A stretch of 64,000 nucleotides of DNA from positions 23,807-87,806 of the forward strand of contig CAYLRV010000001.1 of assembly GCA_964386395.1 (NCBI GenBank). Reading direction: 5' to 3'. The translations under genes and the position numbers were made by a program. This document shows, one piece after another, positions 1,856 to 64,000 of this stretch (position 1 is the stretch's first letter; the number at the start of each line of letters is the position of its first letter). Below the pieces are notes generated by a model. That model had not been told where the DNA came from. It did no database searches and saw only the letters and a program-made list of their open reading frames with translations. Origin of the DNA: an uncultured Chitinophaga sp. Its GTDB lineage: Bacteria; Bacteroidota; Bacteroidia; Chitinophagales; Chitinophagaceae.

Positions 1856-1861
1856 GGGGAT

Positions 1862-4483
1862 TTACAACTCCCTGTCACCATATTCACTAATCAGCTCTGC
1901 CACCAGGGCCGTCCATCCTGTTTGATGGCTTGCACCAATACCTTTACCGGTATCACCGTTGAAGTATTCATAAAATAATATAAGATGTTCATTGCCGGGT
2001 TGTCTATAAAACCAGTTGTACTCACCATTGAAACGGCGGTTGCCTTCCTCATCCCGCTCAAATAAACTAATCACCCGTCTCGTGAGCTCATATGCCACCT
2101 GCACCAGGTTCATTTTTACGCCTGAGCCAGTTGGATATTCCACCTGCAGATCATCACCATAGAATTCGCCGTAGTGCCGGAGCGACTGAATGATTAAAAA
2201 ATTAATCGGCATCCACATCGGCCCACGCCAGTTAGAATTACCACCAAATAAATCGGAGGTAGAATCACCCGGATCGTATTGAATAGTGTATGTTTGTCCA
2301 TCCATTCGTACGGAGTACGGATTTTGCTCATGGTATTTTGATAAGGCCCGGATACCGCTATCGGATAAGAACCCTTTTTCATCCAGCAGACGTTCGAGTA
2401 TTGAGACCAGCCTGTCTTTTGGTACTAACGATAAAAGAATTTCACCGTCCTTGCTTCGTTCTTCATTCGGCCAGAATTTATTATTCTTCAACCGGTAGTT
2501 TTCAAACCAGGTGATACGCTTTTTAAAATCAGGTAAGCTGTCCTGCCTCGCCTTGGATATGGTAGATACTGCATAGAGCGGGGCCACACCCACGATAGAC
2601 TGAATACGCAATGGTATGGGCGCAGCACCTGTCACACAAAGCACATCATAAAAGAACCGGTCTTCCTCATTCCACAAACCATGCTCATTGAGCGACTCGG
2701 CTATCAATACAAAGTGTTCAAAAAATTTAGTGGCTGTATCCTCAAAGGATTCATCGTGAATGGCAATTTCAATCGCCATATCCATCATATCAAGTGCGAA
2801 AGCACCCATCCAACTGGTGCCATCGGCCTGCTCCAGTTGTACTTCGCCAGTAAAGTGAAGGCTGCGGTTAAATACCCCGATATTATCCAGGCCAAGGAAA
2901 CCTCCCTCAAAAATGTTGTTGCCGTTTTTATCTTTCCGGTTTATCCACCAGGTAAAGTTGATAAGCAGCTTATGAAATACTTTCTTCAAAAAATTTATAT
3001 CACCGGAACCGCTTCTTCTTTTTTCAATCTGGTACACCTGCATTGCCGCCCATGCCTGTACCGGCGGGTTTACATCGCTGAAATTCCATTCATACGAGGG
3101 TAGTTGACCATCTGGCTTCATATACCATTCCCGCATAAGCAATAGTAACTGGTGTTTGGCAAAAGTGGGGTCTGCCACGGCCATTGAAATACACTGGAAA
3201 GCGAGATCCCAGGCCGCATACCAGGGATACTCCCATTTATCCGGCATCATAATGATGTCCTGGTTCTTCAGGTGCTGCCAGTCATTGTTGCGGCCTTTTT
3301 GTTTGCCCGGGTTTACCGGGGTGATTCCATCGCTTTTACCTATCCAGCGTTCCACATCAAAATGGTAAAACTGTTTGCTCCATAACATACCGGCCAATGC
3401 CTGGCGTTGTATACGTGCCACATCCTCATTCATTCCCTTTGGGAGAATAGCCGCATAATATTCATCCGCTTCTTGTTTGCGAAGTGTGAATACATCTTTC
3501 ACAATTTTTCCAAACGGCGCATCAAACAGTTCTGTACTGAGGCGGCAATAAATTGTTTTGGTAGCGCCACCGGCAATTTTCATTTTATATACCGGCGAAA
3601 ACTTAGTGCCCTTTTTTCGGGCGGCCAGCTCTTTTATATTCTTTCCTTCTATCACAGCATCATGAAAAGCGTCCTTTACAAAAATGTCTGCATTGGGTTG
3701 CCCGAGTATTTTTTCGTTGTTGGTTCGGTTATCGGTAAACAAGCAATTGTCTGCTGCCTGAAAATAGAAATAGTAATCACCAAGCCGTTCATGCTCCGCC
3801 CGTACCGTTGTTTTATCAATAAATTCAATACAAGGAAATTTTTTAAAGGCCTGGTAACTTTGCCTGTTATAAAACCAAAGGGTTGGCAGCACCGTTATTT
3901 CCGCTGCTTCTGTGTAGCGGTTGGTGATATCTATTTTGATAAAAATATCCTGCGCACTGTGTTTTGCATACGTAATCTGCACATCAAAATACTGGTTGTT
4001 ATCAAACACACCGGTATCTAATATTTCATACTCCGGCTCCAGCCTGTTGCGCTTCTTATTTTCGTCTTTCAGTTTTTGATAGGGAAATTCCTGCTGCGGG
4101 TATTTATATAAATACTCCATGTAGTAATGCGTGGGCAGGTTATCCAGGTAGTAGTATAGTTCTTTTACATCTTCTCCATGATTGCCCTGTGGATTGCTTA
4201 AACCAAAAAGCCTTTCCTTCAGAATTGGATCTTTACCATTCCATAAGGCCACTGCAAAACAGAGATTGCCAAAATAGTCGGTAATACCACCCAGGCCATC
4301 TTCGCCCCAGAGATAGCTGCGGCTATGGGCATGATCAAAAGGAAAATAATTCCAGGCATCTCCCCATTCCCCATAGTCTTCCCGCACGGTGCCCCATTGC
4401 CGTTCACTCAGGTAAGGCCCCCATTGCGCCAATGGAATTTCTTTGGTGGCGTTTACTGCCAGCCGTTGGTGTTCTGCTGTCAT
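1862..4483 (-). CDS. GH63-like / MGH1-like glycoside hydrolase
   Basis: 873-aa ORF. The size and W/Y-rich motifs (GGFLGLDNIGVFNRS, WRGPMWMPINF) recall YgjK / mannosylglycerate-hydrolase-type enzymes. The call rests on recollection of the family only. Confidence 0.5.
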   Translation of the reverse strand: MTAEHQRLAVNATKEIPLAQWGPYLSERQWGTVREDYGEWGDAWNYFPFDHAHSRSYLWGEDGLGGITDYFGNLCFAVALWNGKDPILKERLFGLSNPQGNHGEDVKELYYYLDNLPTHYYMEYLYKYPQQEFPYQKLKDENKKRNRLEPEYEILDTGVFDNNQYFDVQITYAKHSAQDIFIKIDITNRYTEAAEITVLPTLWFYNRQSYQAFKKFPCIEFIDKTTVRAEHERLGDYYFYFQAADNCLFTDNRTNNEKILGQPNADIFVKDAFHDAVIEGKNIKELAARKKGTKFSPVYKMKIAGGATKTIYCRLSTELFDAPFGKIVKDVFTLRKQEADEYYAAILPKGMNEDVARIQRQALAGMLWSKQFYHFDVERWIGKSDGITPVNPGKQKGRNNDWQHLKNQDIIMMPDKWEYPWYAAWDLAFQCISMAVADPTFAKHQLLLLMREWYMKPDGQLPSYEWNFSDVNPPVQAWAAMQVYQIEKRRSGSGDINFLKKVFHKLLINFTWWINRKDKNGNNIFEGGFLGLDNIGVFNRSLHFTGEVQLEQADGTSWMGAFALDMMDMAIEIAIHDESFEDTATKFFEHFVLIAESLNEHGLWNEEDRFFYDVLCVTGAAPIPLRIQSIVGVAPLYAVSTISKARQDSLPDFKKRITWFENYRLKNNKFWPNEERSKDGEILLSLVPKDRLVSILERLLDEKGFLSDSGIRALSKYHEQNPYSVRMDGQTYTIQYDPGDSTSDLFGGNSNWRGPMWMPINFLIIQSLRHYGEFYGDDLQVEYPTGSGVKMNLVQVAYELTRRVISLFERDEEGNRRFNGEYNWFYRQPGNEHLILFYEYFNGDTGKGIGASHQTGWTALVAELISEYGDREL

Positions 4484-4572
4484 TTACCGGTTTTATACTT
4501 TCCCATAACAGCAAGCAAAATCGTTGGAAAAGTGAAATTAGAAATTATAACGGAATTTAAGAAAGGATAAAG

Positions 4573-5406
4573 CTATTCGTATTTTTTACTAAGCTGGTAC
4601 AATACTTTCAGCTGCTGGTCATTTAATCCCTTCGTTGTATCCTGCAACCAATGACGTTTGAAACCAATAATGGCTGCATTACTGTCCTTTGTATCATATC
4701 CAATGATCCGCAAGGCATGCAAACGATTGAAATTTGCAGGTAGCTGCACATTCGCTATATCATCATACCAGTACCCGAATCCTTTCTCCGATAATTGCTT
4801 CCAGGGAAAGCGCCAGTTGGGATCATTTTTACGGGTGGGCGCTATATCGCCGTGGCCGATAAAATTGGCTGCTGGTATGGAGTACGCATTTTTCAAACGG
4901 CCAAGCAGGGTGATCAAGCTATTTATTTGTGCTTCGGAAAAAGGCTCAAAGCCATTATTATCAAGTTCGATACCAACTGAAGAGGAATTTAAGTCAGTAG
5001 CATTGCCCCATTTGCTTACACCGGCATGGTGTGCCCTTAATAAATCATTGAGCATATGGTGCACGGTACCATCCTTACAAATTACATAGTGTGCACTTAC
5101 TTCACGGTTGCCTTTCACGGTAAACGTTCTTAACGTTTCCTCACAACTTTTCTGGGCAGTATGGTGGATGATCACATAGTTAGGCCGGCGTATGGTGAAG
5201 TTGATAGTACCAGCCCAATCCGCAGCATAATTCAATCCCGCGGAATCCTGTAAAGGATATTCAGCCAACAACTTTGCATATGCTTTTACCTGTTGCTTAT
5301 AAATTTTATTCGTACCCGCATATTTCGATTGCGAACAACCACAGGCAATAATAAGGAAGGCAAGGGACAGGGAAATGAACAAGCGGCTTTTTAAAAAGGA
5401 TTTCAT
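4573..5406 (-). CDS. N-acetylmuramoyl-L-alanine amidase (amidase_2 / AmpD-like) lipoprotein
   Basis: Lipobox LIIACGCS. Motifs YVIIHHTA, SAHYVI, HHAG, NSSSVGIELDN and IGHGDIAPTRKNDP are typical of zinc amidase_2. Confidence 0.75.
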   Translation of the reverse strand: MKSFLKSRLFISLSLAFLIIACGCSQSKYAGTNKIYKQQVKAYAKLLAEYPLQDSAGLNYAADWAGTINFTIRRPNYVIIHHTAQKSCEETLRTFTVKGNREVSAHYVICKDGTVHHMLNDLLRAHHAGVSKWGNATDLNSSSVGIELDNNGFEPFSEAQINSLITLLGRLKNAYSIPAANFIGHGDIAPTRKNDPNWRFPWKQLSEKGFGYWYDDIANVQLPANFNRLHALRIIGYDTKDSNAAIIGFKRHWLQDTTKGLNDQQLKVLYQLSKKYE

Positions 5407-5424
5407 ACCACTAAAGTAAAGACC

Positions 5425-6366
5425 TTACTGGTACTTGCGGTACAATGCATAGATTATTTTACGCACGGTGGCATTCATGGCACCACCAGAGCCATCCCGC
5501 ATAAAGTGGCGCTTAAATGCCGAAACAGCCGATGAAGGGGAGGATATATCATAGCCGATTATACGCAGCGCCATCAGGTAGTCGAACTGATCCGGAACAA
5601 CCATATTCGTCGTATCACTCCACCACAGACCATAGCCCTTGTCGCTGAAGTGTTTCCAGGGAAAGCGGAAATTGGGATCCATTTTTCGTGTAGGTGCTAT
5701 ATCACCATGGCCAATAAAATTGGCATCCGGAATTTTATACGCTCTCTTCAGGCGGCCCAGTAATATTTCAAGGCTTTGCATTTGTGCGTCGGCAAAAGCT
5801 TCGTACCCGGTATTTTCCAGCTCGATGCCAATGCTTGCAGAGTTGAGATCGGTGGTATTCCCCCATTTACCATCACCAGCATGATGCGAACGAAGTAAAT
5901 CATTCAGCATGTGATACACGGTTCCGTCACGGCAAATAAGATAATGTGAACTGGCCTCCCGGCCACCTGGTTTTGTAAATTCTGCCAGCACTTCCCTGAA
6001 TCCCTGGGTGGCTGTGTGATGAATGATAACAAAGTTGGGACGGCGTATGCCCATATTGGGCGTACCCACCCACTCTGCTGCATAAGGCAAGCCGGCTGAG
6101 TCTTCCAGCGGAAATTCAGCAATCACCCTTGCCAGTGAATCAATCATTTTATAATACAACCGGTTTGCGTAAGCGTACCTGCCTGTTGGCATGTATCTGG
6201 CGCTATCTTTTAAAGCTGAATCCAATGGATTTTTTACGATCGGATTGGGGTATTCTGTAATAGGTTGTTCACCCGGTGGTTGTGCAGCAACTGCGCCACA
6301 AAAGAGAAGGGTGGCGATTGCGGAGAGAACAGTCAAATGTTTACATATTGTTAAGGGCTTGTACAT
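5425..6366 (-). CDS. N-acetylmuramoyl-L-alanine amidase, tandem paralog
   Basis: Shares the motif set of the neighbouring gene (FVIIHHTA, SSHYLI, HHAG, IGIELEN, IGHGDIAPTRKMDP) and has an extended N-terminus. Confidence 0.75.
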   Translation of the reverse strand: MYKPLTICKHLTVLSAIATLLFCGAVAAQPPGEQPITEYPNPIVKNPLDSALKDSARYMPTGRYAYANRLYYKMIDSLARVIAEFPLEDSAGLPYAAEWVGTPNMGIRRPNFVIIHHTATQGFREVLAEFTKPGGREASSHYLICRDGTVYHMLNDLLRSHHAGDGKWGNTTDLNSASIGIELENTGYEAFADAQMQSLEILLGRLKRAYKIPDANFIGHGDIAPTRKMDPNFRFPWKHFSDKGYGLWWSDTTNMVVPDQFDYLMALRIIGYDISSPSSAVSAFKRHFMRDGSGGAMNATVRKIIYALYRKYQ

Positions 6367-6384
6367 GGGGCTACACTATAACAG

Positions 6385-7680
6385 TTACCGCTTGTTTTTA
6401 TTGTTTGGATGACGATAAAAACGGCGTTGGGGTTTGCCAGCTCCGGCACTTCTTGTACGGGGTGTATAAGCAGGTACCGGGCCGAGTGAGGCCGGCACTT
6501 CTCCCTTATCCACTTCTTTTTCAATCAGTCTTTCTATAGCAGCGAATTTATTTTGTTCTTTCTCGCCCACCAATGTGTAGGCAACACCATCTGCTTCAGC
6601 CCTGGCTGTACGGCCAATGCGATGTACATAATCCTCTCCATCGCCCGGTACATCGTAGTTGATAACGAGATCGATAGTATCAATATCTATACCGCGGCTT
6701 AATATATCCGTAGCTACCAGCAGTGGAATTCTGCCGCTGGTAAATGCGGATAGTACATTTTCCCGCTGTGACTGCTCCAGGTCGCTATGTATTTCTTCTA
6801 TCGTAAAACCACCTTGCTTCAGTTCCCTGCGCAGCTGTTTTACTGTTTGCTTTTTACTGCAAAACACCAATGCATTTTTATATGGCGTTTCTTTCAGCAG
6901 CAGTTTTATCAGTGGCAGTTTTTGCGGATCATAAACTACAAAAGCTTTTTGTACCACTTTTGCCGGTGGTTTGGATATGGCAATATTGATTTCTGCCGGG
7001 TTTTGGAGAATACGGCGGGCCAGTTGCCTTATCTTATCCGGCATAGTGGCCGAGAACAAGAGGTTTTGTCTTTTTAACGGCAGCGCTTTGATAATTTTAT
7101 TAATGTCATCCTGGAAGCCCATGTCGAGCATACGGTCTGCTTCATCCAGTACAAGAAACTGCAGGCCCTTCATATTTACATAGCCCATGTTCAGGTGGGC
7201 AATCATACGGCCAGGTGTGCAAACGATTATATCAGCCCCCATTTGCAGGGCTTTTTTCTCAGCGATAAAATTATCGCCGCTGTTGCCACCATAAATGGCG
7301 ATAGAACTGAGATGGGTAAAATAAGAAAGCCCTTCAATATGTTGTGAAATCTGGATAGCCAGTTCACGGGTGGGAACCACGATCAATGCACCTGTTTGCC
7401 CGTCCACATGGTTCTTCAGCAGGCGGTTCATAACGGGAAGCAGGAAAGCTGCCGTTTTACCAGTGCCGGTTTGTGCGGAGGCAATCACATCCCTTCCTTC
7501 CAGAATAGGTGGTATAACCTGCTCCTGAACCGGGGTGGCGGTTTCGTAATTGGAGGCTTCAATGCCCTCTAAAACTTCTGGTAGAAAATCAAATTCGGTA
7601 AATCGCACTAGTTGCTCATTTTTAGGAAAGAGGCGAAGGTAGTTGAAAATAGTTTTAGCGGGGCAAGTAACCTTAATCAC
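6385..7680 (-). CDS. DEAD-box ATP-dependent RNA helicase (RhlE-like)
   Basis: Q motif TPVQEQ, Walker A AQTGTGKT, DEAD box VLDEAD, SAT, HRIGRTARA, and a basic C-tail. The true start is probably the in-frame GTG at 7608 (VRFTEFDF...). Confidence 0.9.
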   Translation of the reverse strand: MIKVTCPAKTIFNYLRLFPKNEQLVRFTEFDFLPEVLEGIEASNYETATPVQEQVIPPILEGRDVIASAQTGTGKTAAFLLPVMNRLLKNHVDGQTGALIVVPTRELAIQISQHIEGLSYFTHLSSIAIYGGNSGDNFIAEKKALQMGADIIVCTPGRMIAHLNMGYVNMKGLQFLVLDEADRMLDMGFQDDINKIIKALPLKRQNLLFSATMPDKIRQLARRILQNPAEINIAISKPPAKVVQKAFVVYDPQKLPLIKLLLKETPYKNALVFCSKKQTVKQLRRELKQGGFTIEEIHSDLEQSQRENVLSAFTSGRIPLLVATDILSRGIDIDTIDLVINYDVPGDGEDYVHRIGRTARAEADGVAYTLVGEKEQNKFAAIERLIEKEVDKGEVPASLGPVPAYTPRTRSAGAGKPQRRFYRHPNNKNKR

Positions 7681-8189
7681 AGCATTTGGAGCATTCCTTC
7701 AAACCGCCTCTTCATTTTCGCTCTCGAAAGCATGAAAAAATACAGGAAGAAAGGAGCCATCTGTAACAATATTATAGAAACATTAGAAAACCCCGTGTTA
7801 ACTATTTCGTACAGAGACAGCATACCAAGAATACCAGAGAGAAACAATAGCAAATAATTAGGACGGATGGTGATAGTAGTAATTGAACTTTCCGGTTCCT
7901 TACCAGCTTTTATACGACCTTCCAGTATAGCGAGGTGGCTCACGATTCCAAAAATTGCAAAATTGCCGAAGGTTATTTTTGGTTGCAGGATAAAGCTATT
8001 ATCATTCCTGAACCGGCCATAAAGATTAACCGACAAATCGTGCCAGGGTAAACTGATTAACTGCTTAATACCGGATTCAATACGCTCAACTGATCCATCG
8101 AGCGTATACTTATATTTTTTAGCTAAAAACAAGTGTCGGTTAAGATTACATATTCCGCCTGTACTGCCCCCCCACTTCATACAATGCAT
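7677..8189 (-). CDS. Hypothetical small membrane protein
   Basis: ORF only. It has a hydrophobic C-terminal half. Its 5' end overlaps the icmF stop region, so the real start is probably internal. Confidence 0.25.
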
Positions 8190-11100
8190 GTGTTATCTGC
8201 CCAAGCGAACAATACTTTACTGTTTCCATTAATTGTGCAAAGAGGTTTCCATTGTTGATGGCCACCCGCTTTAACTCTTTTAACTCCTTTTCACTCTTAG
8301 CTTCATTACGCTTCCAGAAAGCTTTTAAGGCCTCTATCTGCTGCTCCTTTTCTTCGGTGGTGCTGCGGATTACTTCGGAAGGGATTATTGTTGGTGAACC
8401 TTTTTTGTTCAGGAATGTATTCACACCAATCAAAGGCAATTCGCCGGTGTGTTTCTGGTGCTCATAGTACAGGCTTTCTTCCTGTATTTTATTCCGCTGG
8501 TACATTCTTTCCATGGCACCCAATACACCGCCTCTCTCGGTAATGCGGTCGAACTCGGCCAGCACTGCTTCTTCCACCAGGTCCGTCATTTCTTCAATAG
8601 CAAATGAACCCTGTGTAAAATTTTCTGTTTTGGCCGAACCCAATTCCCGGTTAATGATCAACTGTATAGCCATGGCCCGGCGCACACTTTCCTCTGTTGG
8701 TGTGGTAATCGCTTCATCATAGGCATTTGTATGCAGGGAATTGCAATTATCATATATCGCATATAAAGCCTGCAGCGTGGTGCGGATATCATTAAAATCT
8801 ATCTCCTGTGCATGTAAGCTTCTCCCCGATGTCTGAATATGGTATTTAAGCATCTGGCTGCGCTTGTTGGCTTTGTACTTATACTTCATTGCCTTCGCCC
8901 AAATGCGGCGGGCCACCCGGCCAATCACACTATACTCAGGGTCCATACCATTACTGAAGAAGAATGAGAGGTTTGGGGCGAAATCATCGATATTCATCCC
9001 CCGGCTGAGATAATACTCCACATAGGTAAATCCATTCGCCAGCGTAAACGCCAATTGTGTAATGGGATTAGCACCTGCCTCCGCAATATGATAACCACTG
9101 ATAGATACAGAATAAAAATTGCGGACTTTATTTTCAATAAAATATTCCTGCACATCACCCATCAGCTTCAATGCAAACTCTGTAGAAAATATACAGGTAT
9201 TCTGCGCCTGGTCTTCTTTTAATATATCTGCCTGCACCGTTCCCCTTACCTGTTGCAGGGCATCTGCTTTTATTTTGGCATATACATCAGCAGGTAACAC
9301 ATCGGCACCGGATAGGCCCAGCAACCGCAAGCCCAACCCGTTATTTCCGGCCGGTAGCTCACCATGCAGTTCACCTTTTTGCGGTATTACCGGTTTACCA
9401 TCCACACCAATATAGGTGGGCAATTCTCCGGCTTTATATTTTGCTTCAATAATTTTATTGACGTCCTCCCGCAGGTTATTCGCAATAATATATTTCTCAC
9501 ATTGCTGATCAATGGCTGCATTCATAAAAAAAGCAAGCAGCATCGGTGCAGGGCCGTTGATAGTCATACTTACCGAAGTCTTCGGATCGCATAAGTCAAA
9601 ACCACTGTATAATTTTTTGGCATCATCCACTGTGGCAATGCTCACGCCGCTGTTACCTACTTTACCATAGATATCAGGACGATGACCAGGATCTTCACCG
9701 TATAAAGTCACACTATCAAAAGCCGTGGATAAACGTTTGGCTGGCTGATCCACACTTACATAGTGAAAGCGCTTATTGGTACGTTCTGGTCCGCCTTCAC
9801 CCGCAAACATCCTCGTTGGATCCTCTCCTTCCCGCTTCAATGGAAATACACCGGCCGTAAAAGGGAAATGACCCGGCACATTTTCCTGTGCCTGCCATTT
9901 TAATATGTCACCCCAGTCTTTATATTTGGGCAATACCACTTTCGGGATTCTTGTACCGCTTAAACTGGTGCTCGTCATGGATTGTTTTATCACTTTATCC
10001 CTGACGGTGTATTCGTAAAAGTCTTTCTGGTATTCGGCTACTTTCTCCGGCCAGTTTGTTACCAGCTTGCGGCTTACCGGCGTAAGCTGCTCGGTATAAA
10101 AATCTATTTGCTCCTGTATTTGTGAAAGTAAAGACTGATCAGCCTTTTCTTTTAATACAACCAGCGAGCCATTCAACTGGTAAATTTTCGTGGCAATTGC
10201 AGCCTGGTCTTTTACCAGCTGATCATAATTACGGCTGGCCTCACTTATCTCACTCAGGTACCTGGTGCGGTTGGATGGAATAACAGCCGATGAAACCTTG
10301 GCCGTTTCCGCAAAATGAAATTCACCGAAACGGGTATTGGTCTTTGCTTCTATTTTCTTCAGCAACAGTTCAAAGAGATGGTTCACCCCGTCATCATTAA
10401 ACTTGCTGGCCATCGTTCCCACTATTGGCAATTCATCATCCTTCGCTGAAAACAACTGATGGTTGCGTTTATATTGCTTCTTTACATCAGCCAGTGCATC
10501 CAATGCGCCTGCTTTGTCAAATTTGTTGATGCAGACCAGGTCTGCATAGTCCAGCATATTGATTTTTTCTAATTGTGAAGCAGCCCCGTACTCCGGCGTC
10601 ATCACGTACATACTTACATCACAATAATCAAGGATACTGGCATCGCTTTGTCCCACACCGGCACTTTCCAGTATAACAAAATCAAAGCCCGCTGCTTTAC
10701 AAATATCAATGGCCTCCTGTACAGCACTGCTCAGTGCCGTATTATCTTCACGGGTGGCCAGGCTGCGCATATAAGCCCTGGGGTGGTTGATGGAATTCAT
10801 CCGTATCCTGTCACCCAATAAAGCGCCGCCTGTTTTTTTCTTGGATGGATCAACAGAGATTACGGCAATGGTTTTATCCGAAAAATTGTGCAGGAAGCGG
10901 CGTACAATTTCATCGGTTACCGATGATTTACCAGCGCCGCCTGTACCGGTAATACCGAGAACAGGAATCTTCCTGCCCTCAGCCGGAAGACCCGAAATTT
11001 CTTTAAGCTGGTTTGTATAATCACCTCCTTCCTCTGCAATACTGATTGCCCTTGCAATCCGCCGCACATCCTTCACTTCATCCAGTGGCAATTTTCCATT

Positions 11101-11547
11101 CCATTCTGCCGACTGCCTCATACCCGCTGCTGACTGATTAATCACATCCTCAATCATTCCTTCCAGTCCCATATGTCTTCCATCATCGGGCGAATAGATA
11201 CGGGTGATGCCGTAGTTATGTAATTCTTCTATTTCATCAGGTAAAATCGTACCGCCACCGCCGCCAAAGATTTTGATATGGCCGCAGCCGTTTTCTTCCA
11301 GCAAATCCTTCATGTATTTAAAAAATTCCACATGCCCGCCCTGGTAACTGGTAATAGCAATACCCTGCACATCTTCTTCAATAGCTGTTTCTACAATGTC
11401 TTTCACACTGCGGTTGTGCCCCAGATGGATGATTTCAGCCCCCTTACTCTGCATAATGCGCCGCATGATATTAATAGCGGCATCATGCCCGTCGAAGAGA
11501 CTGGCTGCTGTAACAATTCTAACCTTACTGACCGGGGTATAACTCAT
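8146..11547 (-). CDS. icmF: Fused isobutyryl-CoA mutase (B12-binding domain + MeaB-like GTPase + mutase domain)
   Basis: 1133 aa. N-terminal B12 motif [11 protein letters not shown], then P-loop [12 protein letters not shown], then a methylmalonyl-CoA-mutase-like catalytic domain. The domain order matches IcmF. Confidence 0.85.
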
Positions 11548-52694: not shown

Positions 52695-55600
52695 TTACTG
52701 CTTAACGAATTTCTGCGAACTGCCATCTGCAAAACGCAGCAGGTAATAACCGGCAGCTAACTGTGAAATGTTTATGGTTGTTGATTGATTGCTGATTCGT
52801 ATTGATGATAATTGGCGCCCCTGCATATCATGCAATTGCACAGTAGTGTTTTGAAGTGCTGCAGGAACAGTCAAAACAATCACATCACTCGACGGGTTGG
52901 GATAAAGCGTAATCAGTCCTTCGCCGGTGGTACTCAGTTTCATCACTGCAGAATAACCAGAACGTCCGCTAAATTCAACCTGCCTGATACGGAAGAAGGC
53001 AGTACCGGTAAGGCGTACGGGTTGAGTAAACGTATAGCTGTTTTCACCATTACCGCTGCTGCTTACGGTGCCAATGAGGGTGTAGTTTATTCCATCCTCA
53101 CTTCTTTCAATTTCATAACGGGCAATGTTTGATTCCTGTACTTTCCATTTTATAACTGGCTGTTTCAAACTGTTGAGGCTACCAGCAACAGTTAACCAGT
53201 TCAATGGTAATGTACTGCCGATTGATTTAATAAAGAACCCGCTGAAGCCCGTTACATCAAAACTGATTTCCCAGCGATTGTCAACATTGTTCCATACAAT
53301 ATCGGCGTCGTTCGGGTTTATTGTTTCCGGTGCCCCGGGATAGGAGGCCGGCAGACCTGAACCATCACTGCTTGTACCACCTCTTTTTTCAACCAGCAGG
53401 TTAGCCTTACCAGCAGCGTCACCGGGATTTTGTGGTAACAGTGCTGTGTTCAATGCATTGAAATCATCAAAATCTTGTTGTGTAAAGAATAAGGTAATCC
53501 GCCCTGTTGAAGTAGCAGGGTTTGTAACAGGTGTTATTTCGTAATGTCTTTTTACAAATTCGGCAGGAGGCGTGCTTTCAATCCAAACTTCTGCATCCAC
53601 TTGCCCGGTTACAGGGCTTGCACCGGCCTGTGCCAGGTTTGCAATAAGACTGGTACAGGTGCCAAATGAGGTAACAGTACCTTGTGTGGTCTGCACTGCA
53701 ACATTTGTCATAGCCAGGGAAGATGAAATAAGGCTAAACTCATATATCGTTACAGTCCGGCTTACTTCGGCAGTAGCAATCACCAATGCCCTTCCGGTTG
53801 GGCTTTGATTGGCGGGTACAAATAACAATCCCTCCACACCCAGGTCGGCAGGATGATCAATGTATTGCAGGAACACGGGTGCAAGCGGGTTGCTGATATC
53901 ATAAACAAAAATATCACCGGTACGTTCACTACCTACGAATGCATACAATACACCATTTACTGTTCCGGTGGTAACCGCTTCTACTTCTGGTCCTTTATTA
54001 TCGCTACGTGTATCAAAACTTGCTGATGTACCATCGGAGTTGAATACCGTTGGGTTTTGTTGTGCGGAAATTTGCTCTAACTGATCGCCACTGTCAAACA
54101 CCTGTGTATAGCTGCTGTTCCAGATGCTGAATGAACGTGCACCCAAGGCATGTATCTGATCGTAATCACCATCAGTATCTGTATCACCAGTAGCGCTTGT
54201 CAGTTGCAGACGGCCCAGGTTCTGGTTTAATTTTAAAGTGGCTGCATTTGGAAATACAGTCGGATCCAGTGTATATCCACCAGCACCTACCCTTATTTCT
54301 TCTGAAAAACCTGTCCAAGCCCTTGCATCACCTTCGTTGGCTGTTATATAGTAAGTATTGCCTCCAACAGTAAAGCTGCCAATGGCATCCGGCTGGTACA
54401 TCCCAAATACCGGCCAGTTTTGAATATTAATAGCACCTGTGCTGAAGCCCGGTGCCAAATCACGGTCACTGGCATCAAGGCCGTTGCCGGCCAGGTTATG
54501 ATTTTTTAATCCGAGTGGAACAATCTGTGTTACGGTAGCTGATGCAATATCCACTTCTGCCAGTGCATTATTCTCCTGTAAGGTTACGATTGCTTTTGTA
54601 CCGTCACCGGAGAAGGTGATATATTCCGGTTCCAGGTCCTGTGCTACGGTAGCACCAGGACCATAGATGCGTACACCGGCTGCCCGCAGGGCAGCAATTT
54701 GCGGATTGAAACTCGCAAAGCCTGCGGTTTGTACGGTTGCGGCTAATACACCTCCGGATATATCAATGATGGAAACAGAACCTTCCGGATCAAATGAATT
54801 GCCTTGTCCATAACTATTGGGTTCCCCTTCGTTGGCCGTCAGTACTTTTGTTCCGTCTGGTGAGAAGGTAACCATATCCGGCAGATAGCCTACAGTTACA
54901 TGGTTGATATACGCACCGGTAGCTGCTGTATAGAAAGCAACAATACCCTGTTCTTGTGCACTGCTGCTGTTATTTACAATCGCATAGCCTACGGCAACGA
55001 TACCATTTCTTATTGCAACACTATTGGGCAGCGCCGTGGTGCCGCCGGGTGCACTAAACCCGAATGGGAGGTTGGTTGGGCCACCGATTGTGCCTGTATT
55101 ACTTACAGTATAATATTCCATAGCAGGGCCTGCGACGGTATAAATTCGTAACGAAGCCGCATCGAATGCTGAAATCTCTGCACCATTTGCACTCGTTCCT
55201 GTTGATTTATGAATAAGTACCTGGCAGGTATTATCTGCAATGGTTATATTTTGTGAAACGGGTGAACCCAATATGACACCCGCAGAGGGGTTGCTGATGG
55301 TTAGTACAGCCGTTTCAGCTCCTTCCGTCGCTGCATCATTTCTTATTGTAAATGTTACCGTACCTGTGGTTTGTCCGTTCAGGATAGTGATAGTAGTACC
55401 GGATAATATATAATCACCCGCTGTAATACCCGTGCCGTTTACAGCCAGGTTCACTGTTTGATTCCCCGATACCGGTGCGGATGCGGTAGCCGTTACGGTA
55501 ATGGAGGTAGCAGCCGCTTCACTACCTGCGTTGCTGCTCACAGACAGGTTCACTGTTGGTAAAGCCACATCATTATCGGTGATATCTACGTTCTGGGAAA

Positions 55601-56597
55601 GAGTAGAGCCCAATATAATACCTGCTGATGGGTTGCTGATGGTTAATACCGCTGTTTCCAGGCTTTCGATTACAGCATCATCTACAACGGTAAACGTGAC
55701 CGTACCCAGGGTAGCTCCGTTCGGAATGGTTATCGTCGTGTTCGATAAATTATAATCACCTGCTGTAATATTTGTCCCGCTTACACCAAGGCTTACGGTC
55801 TGATCACCTGTAACTGGTGCTGATGCTGTAGCTGTTACCGTAATACTTGTAGCCGCTGCCTCGCTGCCAGCATTGCTGCTTACAGAGAGTGACACGGATG
55901 GGGTTGCTGCTATATCTGTGCCGCTTACTGTCACCATATCAAAACGCCAGGTACCTGAGCCTGCATAACTGCTGCCTGAATTGGAAGGTGCATAGGCTGA
56001 AGTAGAAGGCGCAAAAACCGATACGATACGGAAAGCGAAATTGGGGTTATTGTTAACCGCAGTTACTGAACTCAAATCAATAGTACGCTGGTTAAACCAG
56101 GTATCGCCGGCATTGCCATCGAAGGGAGCGCCGAAGTCAACAAAGGTTGATCCGTTGGTACTGTACTGAAACTGTTCGTAGCGGCTGGATGTGTTACTAT
56201 GCCGCAAATCATAACGGATAATAATATTTTGCTTTCCTGCTGTACTTACATTGTATTGGGTACCCGCAGTTTTGTTGGCTGCTCCCACAGCCGGATACGT
56301 GGTCGTACCCCAGCCATAGTTGGGCGGGCTGGTAGTTACCGGGTCACTTGAGCCACCATTGGATACACCACTTGCATACGAAGCGGTTGCGCCCCCAATT
56401 AATGCCGCAGTCCCAGTACCTGTAGCAGGGGTAGGTGCGGTGGTGCCTCCGGGAACAGTGCTGGTGGACGTCCCGTTAAAATTCCATTGTGTAATCACTG
56501 TTTGTGCTTGCATCACAGGGCCAATCGCCATGAGCAACAAAACCATAGAAGTTGTCAAAAAACCGTAAACACTTTTTTGCGTATAACTTTTTCTCAT
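52695..56597 (-). CDS. Giant T9SS-secreted protein with two Calx-beta-like repeats and a propeller-like central region
   Basis: The likely start is ATG 56597. Two near-identical roughly 110-aa modules (SVSSNAGSEAAATSITVTATASAPV...TAVLTISNPSAG). C-terminal Por sorting domain (LYPNPSSDVIVL...GYYLLRFADGSSQKFVKQ). Confidence 0.7.
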   Translation of the reverse strand: MRKSYTQKSVYGFLTTSMVLLLMAIGPVMQAQTVITQWNFNGTSTSTVPGGTTAPTPATGTGTAALIGGATASYASGVSNGGSSDPVTTSPPNYGWGTTTYPAVGAANKTAGTQYNVSTAGKQNIIIRYDLRHSNTSSRYEQFQYSTNGSTFVDFGAPFDGNAGDTWFNQRTIDLSSVTAVNNNPNFAFRIVSVFAPSTSAYAPSNSGSSYAGSGTWRFDMVTVSGTDIAATPSVSLSVSSNAGSEAAATSITVTATASAPVTGDQTVSLGVSGTNITAGDYNLSNTTITIPNGATLGTVTFTVVDDAVIESLETAVLTISNPSAGIILGSTLSQNVDITDNDVALPTVNLSVSSNAGSEAAATSITVTATASAPVSGNQTVNLAVNGTGITAGDYILSGTTITILNGQTTGTVTFTIRNDAATEGAETAVLTISNPSAGVILGSPVSQNITIADNTCQVLIHKSTGTSANGAEISAFDAASLRIYTVAGPAMEYYTVSNTGTIGGPTNLPFGFSAPGGTTALPNSVAIRNGIVAVGYAIVNNSSSAQEQGIVAFYTAATGAYINHVTVGYLPDMVTFSPDGTKVLTANEGEPNSYGQGNSFDPEGSVSIIDISGGVLAATVQTAGFASFNPQIAALRAAGVRIYGPGATVAQDLEPEYITFSGDGTKAIVTLQENNALAEVDIASATVTQIVPLGLKNHNLAGNGLDASDRDLAPGFSTGAINIQNWPVFGMYQPDAIGSFTVGGNTYYITANEGDARAWTGFSEEIRVGAGGYTLDPTVFPNAATLKLNQNLGRLQLTSATGDTDTDGDYDQIHALGARSFSIWNSSYTQVFDSGDQLEQISAQQNPTVFNSDGTSASFDTRSDNKGPEVEAVTTGTVNGVLYAFVGSERTGDIFVYDISNPLAPVFLQYIDHPADLGVEGLLFVPANQSPTGRALVIATAEVSRTVTIYEFSLISSSLAMTNVAVQTTQGTVTSFGTCTSLIANLAQAGASPVTGQVDAEVWIESTPPAEFVKRHYEITPVTNPATSTGRITLFFTQQDFDDFNALNTALLPQNPGDAAGKANLLVEKRGGTSSDGSGLPASYPGAPETINPNDADIVWNNVDNRWEISFDVTGFSGFFIKSIGSTLPLNWLTVAGSLNSLKQPVIKWKVQESNIARYEIERSEDGINYTLIGTVSSSGNGENSYTFTQPVRLTGTAFFRIRQVEFSGRSGYSAVMKLSTTGEGLITLYPNPSSDVIVLTVPAALQNTTVQLHDMQGRQLSSIRISNQSTTINISQLAAGYYLLRFADGSSQKFVKQ
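55230..55905 (-). repeat. Tandem duplication encoding the two Calx-beta-like modules
   Basis: Blocks starting near 55545 and 55890 are highly similar at the DNA level (gcagccgcttcactacctgcgttgctgct versus gtagccgctgcctcgctgccagcattgctgct). Confidence 0.6.
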
Positions 56598-56808
56598 ATC
56601 CAGTAATAGTTTGCGCAAAGAAACCTGTGCGGCATGATGTATATGTTACCGCTATGTTACCAGAATATTATCATGGTCCGGTTGAATTCATCATACTATC
56701 AAAACAAGCGTTACTTAACATTTACATAATAGCAAAGTCATGGTAATTTAAACTTACCGTCTCATTCAGGTAACAAACAGTTGTGTTCTTTGCCAAACCC
56801 CTGTACAC

Positions 56809-59047: not shown

Positions 59048-60862
59048 TTAGTTTGATTTCTTTTTCATGGCGGCATTTTCTGCTTCCAGTTTTTCCAGGC
59101 GCTTGTTCATCTCAATCATATGCAGGGTCATTTCTTCAATTTTCTTCAGGAGTACCGCCTGCCCGTCACCAAGATCAAGGCCTTCTTTTTCTATTTCTTT
59201 TGCAGAGGGAACGCCGGGCAGGTGACTATTGGCTTTTATGAACTGTTCTGTTTCAGGGAGGGTTGGCAGGTTGTAACTGGGCTTAAATACATAATCAGGC
59301 CAGATGCTTGACTGCAATTTTACCCTTACCTTTTCAGCAATAACATTGCCTGCTACTGCCAGTTTGTAATTGCCTGTGGCAGGAAAAGTAGTGACAGCAC
59401 CAATACTAACTTCTCCGTTAAGATGCGTGGTGCCGCTTACAGCCAGCTTGTATGCCGGCGTAGTGACACCTATACCTACATTTCCACTATTGTAATATAT
59501 ATCAGAACCGGTTGTTGTCCATTGGCTGCTACCACCACCGCTACCTACTGCAGACCAGCCTGAGGATTTATATTGATAGAGCCCTTCAGTGCCATCTGTT
59601 TGGTAGACTACTAAGCCTGTGGCAGGACTGCTGATGGCAGAACGTTGTGTTGCTGTCATACGGGGTGGCAGGAAACCCTTTGTTGTGGAATTGGCTGTTA
59701 GTACTGCACTCGATGCAATACCGCCGTCTCCAAATGATCCATTACCGTAACTATAAAAATCACCATTCCCATAAAATATATGGGTAGTCGGGCCGGAGAA
59801 GGTTGGCACATTTATGCCAATATCACCCGAGGAGTTAATGATGCCAATTCCCCTGGATATCACACCACTTAAGTCGAGTGTCAACGATGGACGTATATTA
59901 TCCCTGATCTGTATACCAGCATTACCACTGCTTGTTTCTGTTACCAGAGATGTGGCTGCGCCAGTATACAGGTATGATGTGGCGGTTGCAGAATAAGACA
60001 GCATGGACACATTACCTGTAAATCGGCCAGTACCATTCACATCAAGTTTATAAGCTGGCGATGTGGTTCCAATACCAAGGCGGCCAGCATCATCAAAGAA
60101 GGCGGTGGTGATTGCATTGGCACCGATAGATAATGTTGTTGTACCGGGCCTGGCTCTTGTATTAATAGCATTTGGAGTAAGTTCAAGCCCATCCAATCCA
60201 TCGTTATCAGAATTGATTCGCAGTTTTCTTTTTAATATGACATTGTCGTTTTGCCCGCCATCGTGTTTACCCATTAAATATAGCGGGCCGTTATTGGCTA
60301 CCAGCATACCTCCAGAAGCCCGGTACGAATACAGCGCATCTATCTCCGCACCATCCGGGTTAATTACCCACCCGTATGAACTGCTGTTACCAAAAATAGC
60401 TTTGCCGGTACCGCGAATAGTGCCATCAACTTCCAGTTTATGAGCCGGGCTGGTGGTGCCAATACCCACATTACCATCGGAAGCAACCCTGAACCTTGCC
60501 AGGCTGTTTGTATAAATCGTATAATTGGCATTTTCATAACCGTACAAATAAAGATCGTTGCTATTATTTGCCCCATATCCAAAATTCCAGCCACCGCCTG
60601 CATTGGTAGATTGCTTCAGGTGCATCACCAGCTGTCCTGTTTGGGCCGTACTGCCGAAATGAAAACTGGGTCCCCCCACTTTTAAACTACCGTTTACATC
60701 CAGCCTTACCGTTGGGTTGTTGGTGCCGATACCTACATTACCCAGTTGAGTATTATAGATATCATCGCTGGTGCTGCCTACAGAAGACCAGAGTGCCTGT
60801 GCATTGGCCATACTTGCTGACAGCAAAGCAACTGCCAGGATCATTACTTGTATTATTCGCAT
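59048..60862 (-). CDS. Secreted repeat protein with tail-fibre-like repeats and a C-terminal coiled coil
   Basis: Signal peptide. Repeated GNVGIGT..P..KL.V.G blocks. C-terminus WPDYVFKPSYNLPTLPETEQFIKANSHLPGVPSAKEIEKEG... followed by heptad-rich sequence. Confidence 0.55.
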   Translation of the reverse strand: MRIIQVMILAVALLSASMANAQALWSSVGSTSDDIYNTQLGNVGIGTNNPTVRLDVNGSLKVGGPSFHFGSTAQTGQLVMHLKQSTNAGGGWNFGYGANNSNDLYLYGYENANYTIYTNSLARFRVASDGNVGIGTTSPAHKLEVDGTIRGTGKAIFGNSSSYGWVINPDGAEIDALYSYRASGGMLVANNGPLYLMGKHDGGQNDNVILKRKLRINSDNDGLDGLELTPNAINTRARPGTTTLSIGANAITTAFFDDAGRLGIGTTSPAYKLDVNGTGRFTGNVSMLSYSATATSYLYTGAATSLVTETSSGNAGIQIRDNIRPSLTLDLSGVISRGIGIINSSGDIGINVPTFSGPTTHIFYGNGDFYSYGNGSFGDGGIASSAVLTANSTTKGFLPPRMTATQRSAISSPATGLVVYQTDGTEGLYQYKSSGWSAVGSGGGSSQWTTTGSDIYYNSGNVGIGVTTPAYKLAVSGTTHLNGEVSIGAVTTFPATGNYKLAVAGNVIAEKVRVKLQSSIWPDYVFKPSYNLPTLPETEQFIKANSHLPGVPSAKEIEKEGLDLGDGQAVLLKKIEEMTLHMIEMNKRLEKLEAENAAMKKKSN

Positions 60863-60972: not shown

Positions 60973-61548
60973 CTATATTAATACAACTTCCAGCAATCCG
61001 CACTTCTTTCCAAACGCATAATCCCTGCCGCTGCTATACAAATAATCTTCGGGCTTGAGTACTATCCATGCTTCCACAGGATTATTATGAATATAGTTCA
61101 GCTTTTGTACAGTAAACCCTGAACTAAAAAGCTCTTTTGGCTGATTATCTTGCCTCCAGAACTGGTAGTTACTATTCCGGCTGTTGCACTCTCCCGCTTT
61201 TCTAAATATTTCCAGCATCCATTCCCTCCTGCTTTCTTTTTTATTTTCCTGTATAGCTTTTATAATTTTTTTACTGGTAAACTTCTTAAAGTCCCTTAAT
61301 ATCTCACTTGTATCATTGCTTTTGGCCGCCACTACCATATGGATATGGTTGCTCATCAAGCACCATGCATATAACACCAATCCCTTTTCTGCCTGGCAAT
61401 ACCTGATACTTTCCAGCACGATGTCCCTGTATTCCTTTCTTGTAAACACGTCCACCCATTCGACTACGGCAAATGTTATAAAATGAATACCTTCTTTGTT
61501 TCGTATTTTATAACCTCCGTCATTGATATTTTCATCCGTTTGCTTCAT
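60973..61548 (-). CDS. REP-associated tyrosine transposase (RAYT) / IS200-like Y1 transposase-family protein
   Basis: IHFITFAVVEW, the HUH motif NHIHMVV, and the tyrosine helix YIHNNPVEAWIV. Confidence 0.7.
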   Translation of the reverse strand: MKQTDENINDGGYKIRNKEGIHFITFAVVEWVDVFTRKEYRDIVLESIRYCQAEKGLVLYAWCLMSNHIHMVVAAKSNDTSEILRDFKKFTSKKIIKAIQENKKESRREWMLEIFRKAGECNSRNSNYQFWRQDNQPKELFSSGFTVQKLNYIHNNPVEAWIVLKPEDYLYSSGRDYAFGKKCGLLEVVLI

Positions 61549-61760
61549 TTTTACAGATAGCCTTAGTTGTTAACTAAAACAAATAATATTCCTTTTTACT
61601 TTAGCAGCATATACTGCTGTCTATTTTTACGGCTTTTACAAAGCCGGTACTGAGACACAGTCTCAGCACAGCCTTTCAACATTTTTTTACGACTTCATCG
61701 TTTCCTGTTGATTTTATCGTTCTCCCTTTTTTGCCGAACACTACGGACAGCGGGGGAACA

Positions 61761-62210
61761 TTACCACACTCCTATGAACTTTGTTTCCTTTTGATAAACA
61801 ATTGTCTCCAAAGCTTCAAAAAAATTACGCCCAATTTCAAAAATTGCATCATCGTCAGCTATAAAAAAAACTCCTGAATAAGATACTAATAATAATCCTG
61901 AATAGAAATGTACACACCCAACAGCTATTATTTTATCCTGAATCAAAAGCTCACATTTCTTTATAGCTTTTTTGTCAACGCCCAACCCATAATCTATATT
62001 TAGCTTGATATTGCTAAACTGGCCATCCGGCGTTTTAAACTCCAATTCAATATTCCAAAATTCTGTTAATAAACTTGCAATCAATTGATTGGGCAGATTG
62101 TATCCTCTCTTATTCAGGTCCTCAATCATATAATCTATTTCAATCTTTCGGCCAGGGTACCATCCAGATTCTTCTAAAATTTCTCTTATCTGATTATTCA
62201 TTAGTTTCAT
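61761..62210 (-). CDS. SUKH-family immunity protein (SUKH-3-like)
   Basis: 149 aa. N-terminal ILEESGWYPGRKI. Lies immediately downstream of the RHS toxin C-terminus. Confidence 0.55.
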   Translation of the reverse strand: MKLMNNQIREILEESGWYPGRKIEIDYMIEDLNKRGYNLPNQLIASLLTEFWNIELEFKTPDGQFSNIKLNIDYGLGVDKKAIKKCELLIQDKIIAVGCVHFYSGLLLVSYSGVFFIADDDAIFEIGRNFFEALETIVYQKETKFIGVW

Positions 62211-62222
62211 CGTAATAATTTT

Positions 62223-64000
62223 TTAATTCCCTTTTGTTCCTTTTAGAGTTTGAACACAATTGGCACATGCTGGAACTGCTTTAATCGGGTTAGGCTTAAT
62301 ATAGTCTAAAGTAATTGGGCTATTTCCCCTATAGCTAAATCCGCTTTTTAAAGTAAATGAACTTGAATATATCGTTGCCTCATCAGTAACTAGTAGCGCT
62401 TGTGAAACTGTAATATTTCTCTTTTTTATTCCCAAATTTAAAAGTGTATTTATTGCTTTTGGCTCTGCGCACTGCAATGCTGGCCTTCCACTTTTCATCA
62501 AACTCACCAATGGAGCTTTCAGGTTTCTATTAATATTCATTGGATAATGACTTCCATTAACTCCAACAGAAACAAAGCCATTCCCTTCAGCTGCTGATAC
62601 TACTTGAATACCTTTATTATTAATTGGAGCTAAATGTGTCATCTTGAGAATAGCATAATCATTTGCAGCCATTTGAGCAGTATATTTTGCAGCAGGAGCA
62701 GATGCGATTTTTATACCACTGGAGATCTTCGAAGTATAACCTGGGGCTAGGAAAGCAATTCCATTCTCCAAGGTTTGAGGATTTTTGAGAGCATTCCATG
62801 AGTCCTCTAATTGTACTCCAAATGGAGTGTTCCAGGTATAATTCCATGAGCTTACGACACTATTGTTAATACCACTACTTATAACATTTAACTCATCAGC
62901 CAAATCAGCAAAAAAAGTTCCATTCTTAATACTATTTACGCCTTTGATGGTTCCATTCGTAAAATCCACAACTGTCCAATTCCATGCTTTTATTAGTCCA
63001 TTAGGCACCGCACTTAACCAGTCTACAAGATTTCCTTGCTGAGGAATTGTACGAACATATCCTACATATGGAATATCATTAGCTGTCTTAGGATCTGCGC
63101 ATTCTCCGCTATGTTCTTTTCCGCAGACCGGGCAATTCCCACCGGCATGGTCACCATTCACATCAGATAAAAGAACTGGATTCCCTGCAAAACATAAATA
63201 AGAACTTTCATATTCTTTAACTATCGGGTCCACATTCCACCTCCTCACAATCCTTGCATCATACTGCCAGAACTCTGCAGTTGTACTATTAGCTCCAATT
63301 TCCGGCGTTTTCTCCTGCCCGTTTATTGAGTACCGGTAACTGCTGCCCGCCTGCTCAAATTTCCGGCCCGGCATTTCCATACCACCACTGTAGCCGTCAA
63401 CGGCTGTAGCCACATCAGCCGTGTAATATGCTACCGTTGTATTGTTGGTACTCACCTGTATCTTCCTGTCACTCACCGTTACCAGCACATTCCCTAAATG
63501 GTTACTCAGCTCATACACCGTACTGCCCCTTTCAAAACTGTAGATACCTATTGTATTTGCAACCGGGTTCTCCACATTTACATCGCGGTTCACAATACCG
63601 AGACGACTGCTGCCATAGAGGTGTACTTCGGCTTGTATCAAATCCTTCATCGAGCCACCAATTACATCCGAAGGCAATGGCAGCTTTTCATATACACTCA
63701 TTACATTACCACTGGCATCACGCACATAAATAGTGGTGCTGGGGCCGCCCGTTGCTATAGGAGGAGTTACCACTTTGCTGATACGATTACCACCTGCATC
63801 ATAGGTATAAGCAATCGTAGTAGTTTCACCACTCTTCACTTTAGTTATGCTGCTTATTTTTCCATATACATTCCACTCAATATTAGTAATACCTTCTTTT
63901 ATATCTTTTACCAGGTTACCAATCTCATCGTACTCATAATTATCATCTGCCTGGTTGTCTATATCTTCCTGGTAGTTAGCATCGCCTATGGCATCTTTTA
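62223..64000 (-). CDS. RHS/YD-repeat polymorphic toxin, C-terminal part (N-terminus outside window)
   Basis: The frame is open to the window edge (...YEYDEIGNLVKD...IEWNVYGKI...YTYDAGGNRISK). The core ends at NPVLLSDVNGD (PxxxxDPxGL-like). A variable C-terminal domain of about 310 aa follows. Confidence 0.8.
   Translation of the reverse strand, partial: KDAIGDANYQEDIDNQADDNYEYDEIGNLVKDIKEGITNIEWNVYGKISSITKVKSGETTTIAYTYDAGGNRISKVVTPPIATGGPSTTIYVRDASGNVMSVYEKLPLPSDVIGGSMKDLIQAEVHLYGSSRLGIVNRDVNVENPVANTIGIYSFERGSTVYELSNHLGNVLVTVSDRKIQVSTNNTTVAYYTADVATAVDGYSGGMEMPGRKFEQAGSSYRYSINGQEKTPEIGANSTTAEFWQYDARIVRRWNVDPIVKEYESSYLCFAGNPVLLSDVNGDHAGGNCPVCGKEHSGECADPKTANDIPYVGYVRTIPQQGNLVDWLSAVPNGLIKAWNWTVVDFTNGTIKGVNSIKNGTFFADLADELNVISSGINNSVVSSWNYTWNTPFGVQLEDSWNALKNPQTLENGIAFLAPGYTSKISSGIKIASAPAAKYTAQMAANDYAILKMTHLAPINNKGIQVVSAAEGNGFVSVGVNGSHYPMNINRNLKAPLVSLMKSGRPALQCAEPKAINTLLNLGIKKRNITVSQALLVTDEATIYSSSFTLKSGFSYRGNSPITLDYIKPNPIKAVPACANCVQTLKGTKGN

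Follow-up and report, generated by a model that had tools for sequence, protein, structure and literature searches.

A stretch of 64,000 nucleotides from contig CAYLRV010000001.1 of an uncultured Chitinophaga species, referred to here as the window, ends within a gene for an RHS polymorphic toxin that is followed by a SUKH-3 immunity gene. In this report, we describe the C-terminal domain of this toxin, which is probably a highly divergent, C-terminally truncated YwqJ-like zinc-dependent nucleic-acid deaminase, carried by an RHS protein and paired with a SUKH-3 antidote. All features of the locus lie on the minus strand, and all positions are those of the window unless another contig is named. 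The features are as follows.

63998 to stop codon at 62223-62225, minus strand: RHS open reading frame, in frame and extending past the window end
63150-64000, minus strand: C-terminal part of the RHS/YD-repeat shell, with RHS_repeat and YD_repeat matches and the core-end motifs QYDARIVRRWNVDP and NPVLLSDVNGD
63150-63182, minus strand: core-end motif NPVLLSDVNGD, read directly from the translation
62226-63149, minus strand: RHS tail of 308 residues after NPVLLSDVNGD, from the translation
63078-63149, minus strand: linker of 24 residues with the Cys-rich knuckle CPVCGKEHSGEC, from the translation; lineage-specific
62742-63077, minus strand: pre-toxin module (tail residues 25-136), with no Pfam model, common to many RHS tails with different toxins
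62226-62741, minus strand: toxin domain, with its conserved core at tail residues ~150-308 (62226-62702); predicted YwqJ-like zinc deaminase, truncated after helix 3
62463-62471, minus strand: C227-A228-E229 in QCAEPKAIN, where helix 2 would begin; C227 is a predicted zinc ligand and E229 the predicted catalytic glutamate; the motif aligns with CAE of Bacillus subtilis cytidine deaminase
62256-62267, minus strand: C295-A-N-C298, whose cysteines are the second and third predicted zinc ligands, where helix 3 would begin; aligns with PCGAC of cytidine deaminase
62223-62225, minus strand: stop codon of the RHS toxin gene, 12 nucleotides upstream of the immunity start codon
61761-62210, minus strand: SUKH-3 immunity gene of 149 residues (Pfam SUKH-3), starting 12 nucleotides after the toxin stop codon

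The part of the RHS gene that lies beyond the window is available from a public contig (L004), which shows 0 mismatches to the window across an overlap of 2713 nucleotides. The complete gene (L004 positions 1646-9988) encodes 2780 residues with an N-terminal signal peptide. The full-length protein exhibits a weak match to DUF6443 and contains RHS repeats (RHS_repeat, E = 7.6e-7), and the open reading frame matches the YD_repeat model TIGR01643 at 17.8 bits, against a cut-off of 15.8 bits; the RHS core model TIGR03696 did not match this open reading frame in the NCBIfam scan. Repeats, a core-end motif, a variable tail and an immunity gene are all present, as is characteristic of an RHS/YD-repeat polymorphic toxin. 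The locus is identical in three independent sequencing runs. Its G+C content falls from approximately 0.47 in the RHS core to approximately 0.35 over the tail and immunity gene, and the break coincides with the core/tail junction, a pattern typical of toxin/immunity cassettes that have been exchanged. No PAAR, VgrG or type VI secretion system gene was seen in the fetched flank around the full-length gene.

A preliminary description of this locus had treated the region after the core end as one C-terminal domain of about 310 residues. The length is close to the 308 residues of the tail, but the tail is a composite of three parts, namely a Cys-rich linker of 24 residues, a pre-toxin module of ~110 residues and a toxin domain of ~155 residues. 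These parts were distinguished by using homologs of the tail, which were sought in an exhaustive phmmer search of 1.84 billion representatives. This search identified 40 homologs that fall into two groups; a word-indexed search with the same 308 residues returned nothing, and the relatives are found only by exhaustive phmmer.

In the larger group, more than 30 matches cover only tail residues ~25-145. In these module-only proteins, the module directly follows the RHS core end and is itself followed by a C-terminal region, of ~130-160 residues in most cases. Those C-terminal regions that Pfam recognizes are TNT, Tox-REase-5, Tox-REase-9, Scabin-like, Enterotoxin_a ADP-ribosyltransferase, Ntox46, Ntox24, GH-E and HNH, and the module is present in at least 28 RHS tails with unrelated toxins. 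Because it precedes so many unrelated toxins, we regard residues ~25-136 as a generic pre-toxin module. The PT-TG domain (PF14449) had no match on the window tail at E <= 10 and none at E <= 0.01 in 28 module-carrying proteins. The module is found in many Bacteroidota RHS tails, has no family model and is a candidate for a new pre-toxin domain family. The knuckle, which had been counted as part of the putative toxin, does exist (tail residues 6-17), but its C..C..C pattern occurs in 0 of 44 related proteins. Because no homolog has the knuckle, it is not part of the conserved toxin, and we treat it as a lineage-specific linker.

The remaining phmmer matches, approximately 8 proteins, share the C-terminal domain itself (residues ~150-308). 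Two more members were added by a profile search. A first scan of metagenomes found none, and a scan for the back-translated motif QCAEPKAxN, which recovered two real loci and one chance match, added one member. The family has approximately 12 members, including the window copy, to which the others are 31-47% identical, and all are linked to RHS sequences wherever N-terminal context exists. One GTDB species representative carries the domain, a metagenome-assembled genome of Terrimonas ferruginea (Chitinophagaceae). No match was found in plasmids by tblastn with the best member, and none in viral contigs by a motif scan.

All motifs named in the preliminary description (NPVLLSDVNGD, the knuckle, LQCAEPKAIN and PACANC) are present on the minus strand. 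LQCAEPKAIN corresponds to tail residues 225-234 and PACANC to 293-298, and the Cys of CAE is 68 residues from the first Cys of CxxC, in agreement with the earlier estimate of about 70. Every homolog that covers C-A-E or C..C has the motif unchanged, so that both are more than chance occurrences. The Q, P-K-A and N around CAE, together with an upstream E..G and N-G, are at least 90% conserved, and the family signature is QCAEPKA[LI]N. Two positions before the first predicted ligand, all members have L, W, F, M or V. A Pro precedes CxxC in 7 of 11 members; the window copy has Ala. Between NG and QCAE, all members contain an insert of ~25 residues, with a His (NGxH) in 7 of 12 of them, the window copy included. 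The domain ends soon after its last motif, as all 11 complete C-termini lie 9-11 residues past CxxC and the window protein terminates 10 residues past C298.

The distance between CAE and CxxC is ~33 residues in B. subtilis cytidine deaminase and 51-55 residues in the homologs. It reaches 68 residues in the window copy because of a private 14-residue insertion, QALLVTDEATIYSS, which is found in no other member. The unusual length of this spacing had been given as a reason for caution; it is accounted for by an insert that the YwqJ clade of deaminases has between strand 3 and CxxC (PMC3239186), together with the private insertion.

As the preliminary description had proposed, the downstream gene of 149 residues encodes a SUKH-3 protein. 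It matches the Pfam SUKH-3 model (PF14433) with E = 8.5e-14 and 52.4 bits, compared with a cut-off of 23 bits, and residues 5-138 align with profile positions 2-144 of 146. The pairing of toxin and SUKH-3 is conserved in the family: wherever the gene after the toxin could be read, which was possible at 7 loci (the window, L001, L002, the P0005 contig, L003, L008 and L009), it is a SUKH-3 gene. Those immunity proteins for which an alignment was possible belong to a single subfamily and are 34-49% identical to that of the window; the six aligned from these loci are 34-47% identical to it. Five of the aligned homologs are encoded directly downstream of other toxin-family members for which DNA is available, and the seventh aligned sequence (P0044) is an orphan. 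In L001 (1-7316) and L003 (22-10307), the toxin/SUKH-3 pair is an orphan cassette within an array behind a full-length RHS gene, and each cassette begins with an RHS core-end homology handle, such as MLMPGRGYSATGAYRYGFNG.

Evidence that the domain is a deaminase comes from profile, structural and motif comparisons. This evidence is concordant; each piece is individually weak, and no single test is significant. When every member was scanned against Pfam at E <= 10, the only family matched was PF14431 (YwqJ-deaminase), by P0042 (E 0.036), P0041 (E 0.05) and P0006 (E 0.28). In these alignments, profile positions 68-135 of 138 are covered by the segment that starts at Q-CAE and runs to the C-terminus, so that both the spacing and the C-terminal end coincide with those of the model.

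An AlphaFold2 model from an 11-sequence alignment, which is of low confidence (predicted local distance difference test, pLDDT, 40, compared with 30 for a single-sequence model), has the order helix, strand, strand, helix (at CAE), strand, hairpin, helix (at CxxC). This order is that of the deaminase core up to helix 3. When this low-confidence model was compared with the PDB by using Foldseek, cytidine and blasticidin-S deaminases made up most of the top 50 matches, at E ~1. They occupy ranks 2-6, and PurH, FdhD, TadA, guanine deaminase and dCMP deaminase appear lower. Alignment of the family with four PDB cytidine deaminases by hhalign places helix 1, strand 1, strand 2, CAE and PCxxC in register (P = 0.031). 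The aligned pairs include FRVVSAM/FQVGAAL, QCAEPKALN/NCAERTALF and PCSNC/PCGAC, and the score was reached by 3 of 200 column shuffles and not by a reversed control.

The family can also be compared with published traits of the YwqJ clade. According to Iyer et al. 2011 (PMC3239186), this clade has the motif Gx[CH]xE in helix 2 and an insert between strand 3 and CxxC, and several of its members are truncated after helix 3 or strand 4. Its carriers include RHS proteins, its immunity proteins are SUKH3 and Imm6, and it is found in Bacteroidetes (PMC3239186). The family fits these traits in [CH]xE, CxxC, the strand 3-CxxC insert, truncation, RHS carrier, SUKH3 and phylum. The deaminase-like reading first put forward with caution is therefore likely to be correct, given the sub-threshold PF14431 matches, the resemblance to the cytidine deaminase fold, the register of the motifs and the clade traits. 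The Cys and Glu residues on which that reading depended proved to be invariant among homologs. The searches did not lead to a non-deaminase fold, in that PF14431 was the only Pfam family and the Foldseek results for the low-confidence model were led by cytidine and blasticidin-S deaminases.

Several observations weigh against this assignment. None of the deaminase-specific scores reaches the usual thresholds of significance. The PF14431 matches score 14.7, 14.2 and 11.8 bits against a gathering cut-off of 25.9 bits, and the three matching members are mutually related, so that their matches are not independent. The family consensus has no Pfam match, nor does the window sequence from which the insertion was removed; the window tail itself has no match in Pfam (E <= 10), NCBIfam, PADLOC or PDB sequences, and the family profile finds nothing in the PDB. 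The NCBIfam scan of the family gave single noise matches to unrelated families with comparable E-values, and the structural model is of low confidence (pLDDT 40). Strands 4 and 5 of the canonical fold are missing from the domain, no member has the glycine found in the published Gx[CH]xE signature, and only 7 of 12 carry the histidine of the insert. In earlier screens, divergent YwqJ-family proteins exhibited no deaminase activity on single-stranded DNA (ssDNA) or double-stranded DNA (dsDNA), and their substrates may differ (PMC13648612).

On the assumption of a YwqJ-like deaminase, we infer a mechanism that includes the fold, zinc binding and catalysis, the substrate and the route of delivery. 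The window end would represent the 3' end of an operon for a Sec-exported RHS polymorphic toxin on a Bacteroidota chromosome. The RHS protein would be exported by Sec, and the tail would be released at NPVLLSDVNGD, the usual self-cleavage motif of the RHS shell, with the pre-toxin module presumably assisting passage. The domain of ~155 residues would bind zinc via C227, C295 and C298, with E229 shuttling a proton, and would deaminate bases in the nucleic acid of the recipient cell. By analogy with B. subtilis YwqJ, the likeliest reaction is conversion of cytosine to uracil in ssDNA, which could cause lethal or mutagenic damage. The SUKH-3 protein, probably co-transcribed, would protect the producer by binding the toxin domain. 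Recombination at the RHS core end probably brought in the tail and immunity cassette as a whole.

Alternative explanations differ in how much of this scheme they retain. The domain could be a deaminase-fold enzyme in a functionally distinct offshoot of the YwqJ clade that acts on something other than cytosine in ssDNA, for example on dsDNA, RNA or tRNA, free nucleotides, adenine or guanine. We consider this somewhat unlikely, although it would agree with a family too distant from PF14431 to pass the threshold, with the family's own invariant signature QCAEPKA[LI]N in which the clade glycine is missing, and with the distant YwqJ-family members that lacked ssDNA and dsDNA activity in earlier screens, for which the preprint suggests divergence of substrate (PMC13648612). 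However, most characterized bacterial deaminase toxins act on cytosine in DNA (PMC13648612), and no sequence feature points to a particular alternative substrate. A further departure is that the domain has no relation to deaminases and represents a new zinc-binding toxin fold (Cys3), so that its likeness to CAE...CxxC is convergent or coincidental. The sub-significant deaminase scores, the pLDDT of 40 and a domain that stops right after CxxC, with two canonical strands missing, are all compatible with such a fold. Yet five secondary-structure elements are in register, which goes beyond two motifs; an end after helix 3 has been described for the YwqJ clade, as has the pairing with SUKH3. A new fold is accordingly an unlikely explanation.

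The invariant Gln directly before the invariant Cys, at a predicted helix start, also recalls a Cys-dependent peptidase or glutamine deamidase of papain-like type, in which the Q of QCAE would be the oxyanion Gln and the C the nucleophile. This proposal is hardly credible, because the family has no invariant downstream His, Asn or Asp for a triad, the one His that recurs frequently lies upstream and is absent from 5 of 12 members, and no search revealed a peptidase family or fold; we rejected it for want of a catalytic triad. An HNH-type nuclease was likewise rejected because there is no invariant His. Finally, the cassette might be decaying or inactive, with the window copy having lost toxicity. 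The private insertion QALLVTDEATIYSS, the non-consensus Ala before CxxC, the Ile in PKAIN and the transposase gene next door could be read in this way. However, the open reading frame is intact and in frame with the RHS gene of 2780 residues, the copy retains every residue that is invariant in the family, an intact immunity gene follows closely on the toxin gene, and the locus is identical in the three sequencing runs, all of which make loss of function very improbable.

If the domain is a YwqJ-like deaminase, its closest known relatives are YwqJ/YwqK of B. subtilis and the YwqJ-like clade (PF14431). The shared features are the order of carrier, pre-toxin module and small C-terminal deaminase, the [CH]xE and CxxC motifs, an end soon after helix 3, RHS carriers, SUKH3 immunity and members in Bacteroidetes. 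Differences are that the family remains below the Pfam threshold (best 14.7 vs 25.9 bits) and the window copy is unmatched, that the first ligand is Cys and not His, a variation the clade permits, and that the family lacks the glycine two residues before the ligand and has a signature of its own. B. subtilis YwqJ has the architecture LXG, PT-TG, PF14431 and is an ssDNA cytidine deaminase toxin that has no 5'-base preference, is inactive on RNA and requires its catalytic Glu for killing (Oliver et al. 2026 preprint, PMC13648612). The window toxin differs from it in being on an RHS protein with a Sec signal, rather than on an LXG protein of a type VII secretion system, in having a pre-toxin module not recognized as PT-TG, and in the absence of an endonuclease V gene nearby.

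Cytidine and blasticidin-S deaminases (the cytidine deaminase family; PDB 1jtk, 2d30, 1mq0 and 2z3g) share with the toxin the Cys-Cys-Cys zinc-site motif CAE...PCxxC, although zinc binding by the toxin is a prediction. They provide the best fold-search matches to the toxin model, and hhalign puts helix 1, strands 1-2 and both motifs in register. However, identity is only 17-25% and all scores are sub-significant. The toxin is longer by ~25 residues ahead of CAE and by ~25-40 from strand 3 to CxxC, and it lacks the C-terminal strands that cytidine deaminases use for tetramer and active-site formation. It is also a secreted toxin, whereas they are salvage enzymes. DddA (SCP1.201 clade) and SsdA (BaDTF2), the characterized interbacterial DNA deaminase toxins, resemble the candidate described here in being small C-terminal deaminase domains of polymorphic carriers, each with its own immunity protein, and mutagenic or lethal base deamination in a recipient cell is what we propose for the window toxin as well. 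They belong to other clades, with HxE-type motifs and other immunity families, and neither is among the sequence or fold matches of the toxin family.

The locus adds a very rare, divergent member to a toxin/immunity type described in 2011, and is not a new system. YwqJ-like deaminases on RHS carriers with SUKH-3 immunity were catalogued in that year, and the prototype was reported as an ssDNA cytidine deaminase in 2026, so that the biology proposed here is expected. The subfamily, with ~12 sequences among billions, has been missed by Pfam and by all annotation, and would extend the sequence space of the YwqJ clade. At ~150 residues, its members would be among the smallest predicted deaminase toxins and, if active, could be of interest for base editors. 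A more ambitious and quite unlikely hypothesis is that the QCAEPKA[LI]N family represents a separate, minimal (~150 residues) deaminase lineage that dispenses with strands 4 and 5 and whose preference for substrate or context differs from those of YwqJ, DddA and SsdA, for example by favouring dsDNA, RNA or a modified base. If so, it would provide a new compact base-editing scaffold and a new toxin activity. The importance of the domain would rise only if its substrate is unusual or if it proves to be a useful compact deaminase.

As a cassette, the locus resembles generic Bacteroidota RHS cassettes and orphan modules in its core-end homology handle, variable tail, immunity gene and G+C drop at the junction. 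Nothing in this arrangement is unusual, and the only addition is a gene for a REP-associated tyrosine transposase (RAYT), which immediately follows the immunity gene (60973-61548, minus strand; NCBIfam NF047646, E = 4.5e-26; Pfam Y1_Tnp). The spacer between the RAYT and immunity genes (61549-61760) contains two perfect palindromes, GCAGCATATACTGCTG at 61604-61619 and CTGAGACACAGTCTCAG at 61650-61666. We rejected the possibility of REP elements around the RAYT gene, because CTGAGACACAGTCTCAG is single-copy in the window and there was no sign of a REP family.

Upstream of the full-length RHS gene and outside the window, L004 (1-1626) carries genes for a protein of 260 residues of unknown function and a PA14-domain protein of 2638 residues. 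Within the window, a gene at 59048-60862 (minus strand) encodes a secreted protein of 604 residues with a signal peptide and no Pfam match at E <= 1e-5; it has repeated units resembling 'GIGT..P..KL.V.G' and a C-terminal coiled coil, and thus a tail-fibre-like appearance. A protein of 1307 residues (52695-56618, minus strand) combines choice-of-anchor I and Calx-beta domains with a C-terminal sorting domain of the type IX secretion system (Por_Secre_tail), which indicates a Bacteroidota host with that system. Farther away, at 8146-11547 (minus strand), is a housekeeping gene that is unrelated to the toxin and encodes an IcmF-like fusion of 1133 residues, consisting of a B12-binding domain, a MeaB GTPase and methylmalonyl-CoA mutase.

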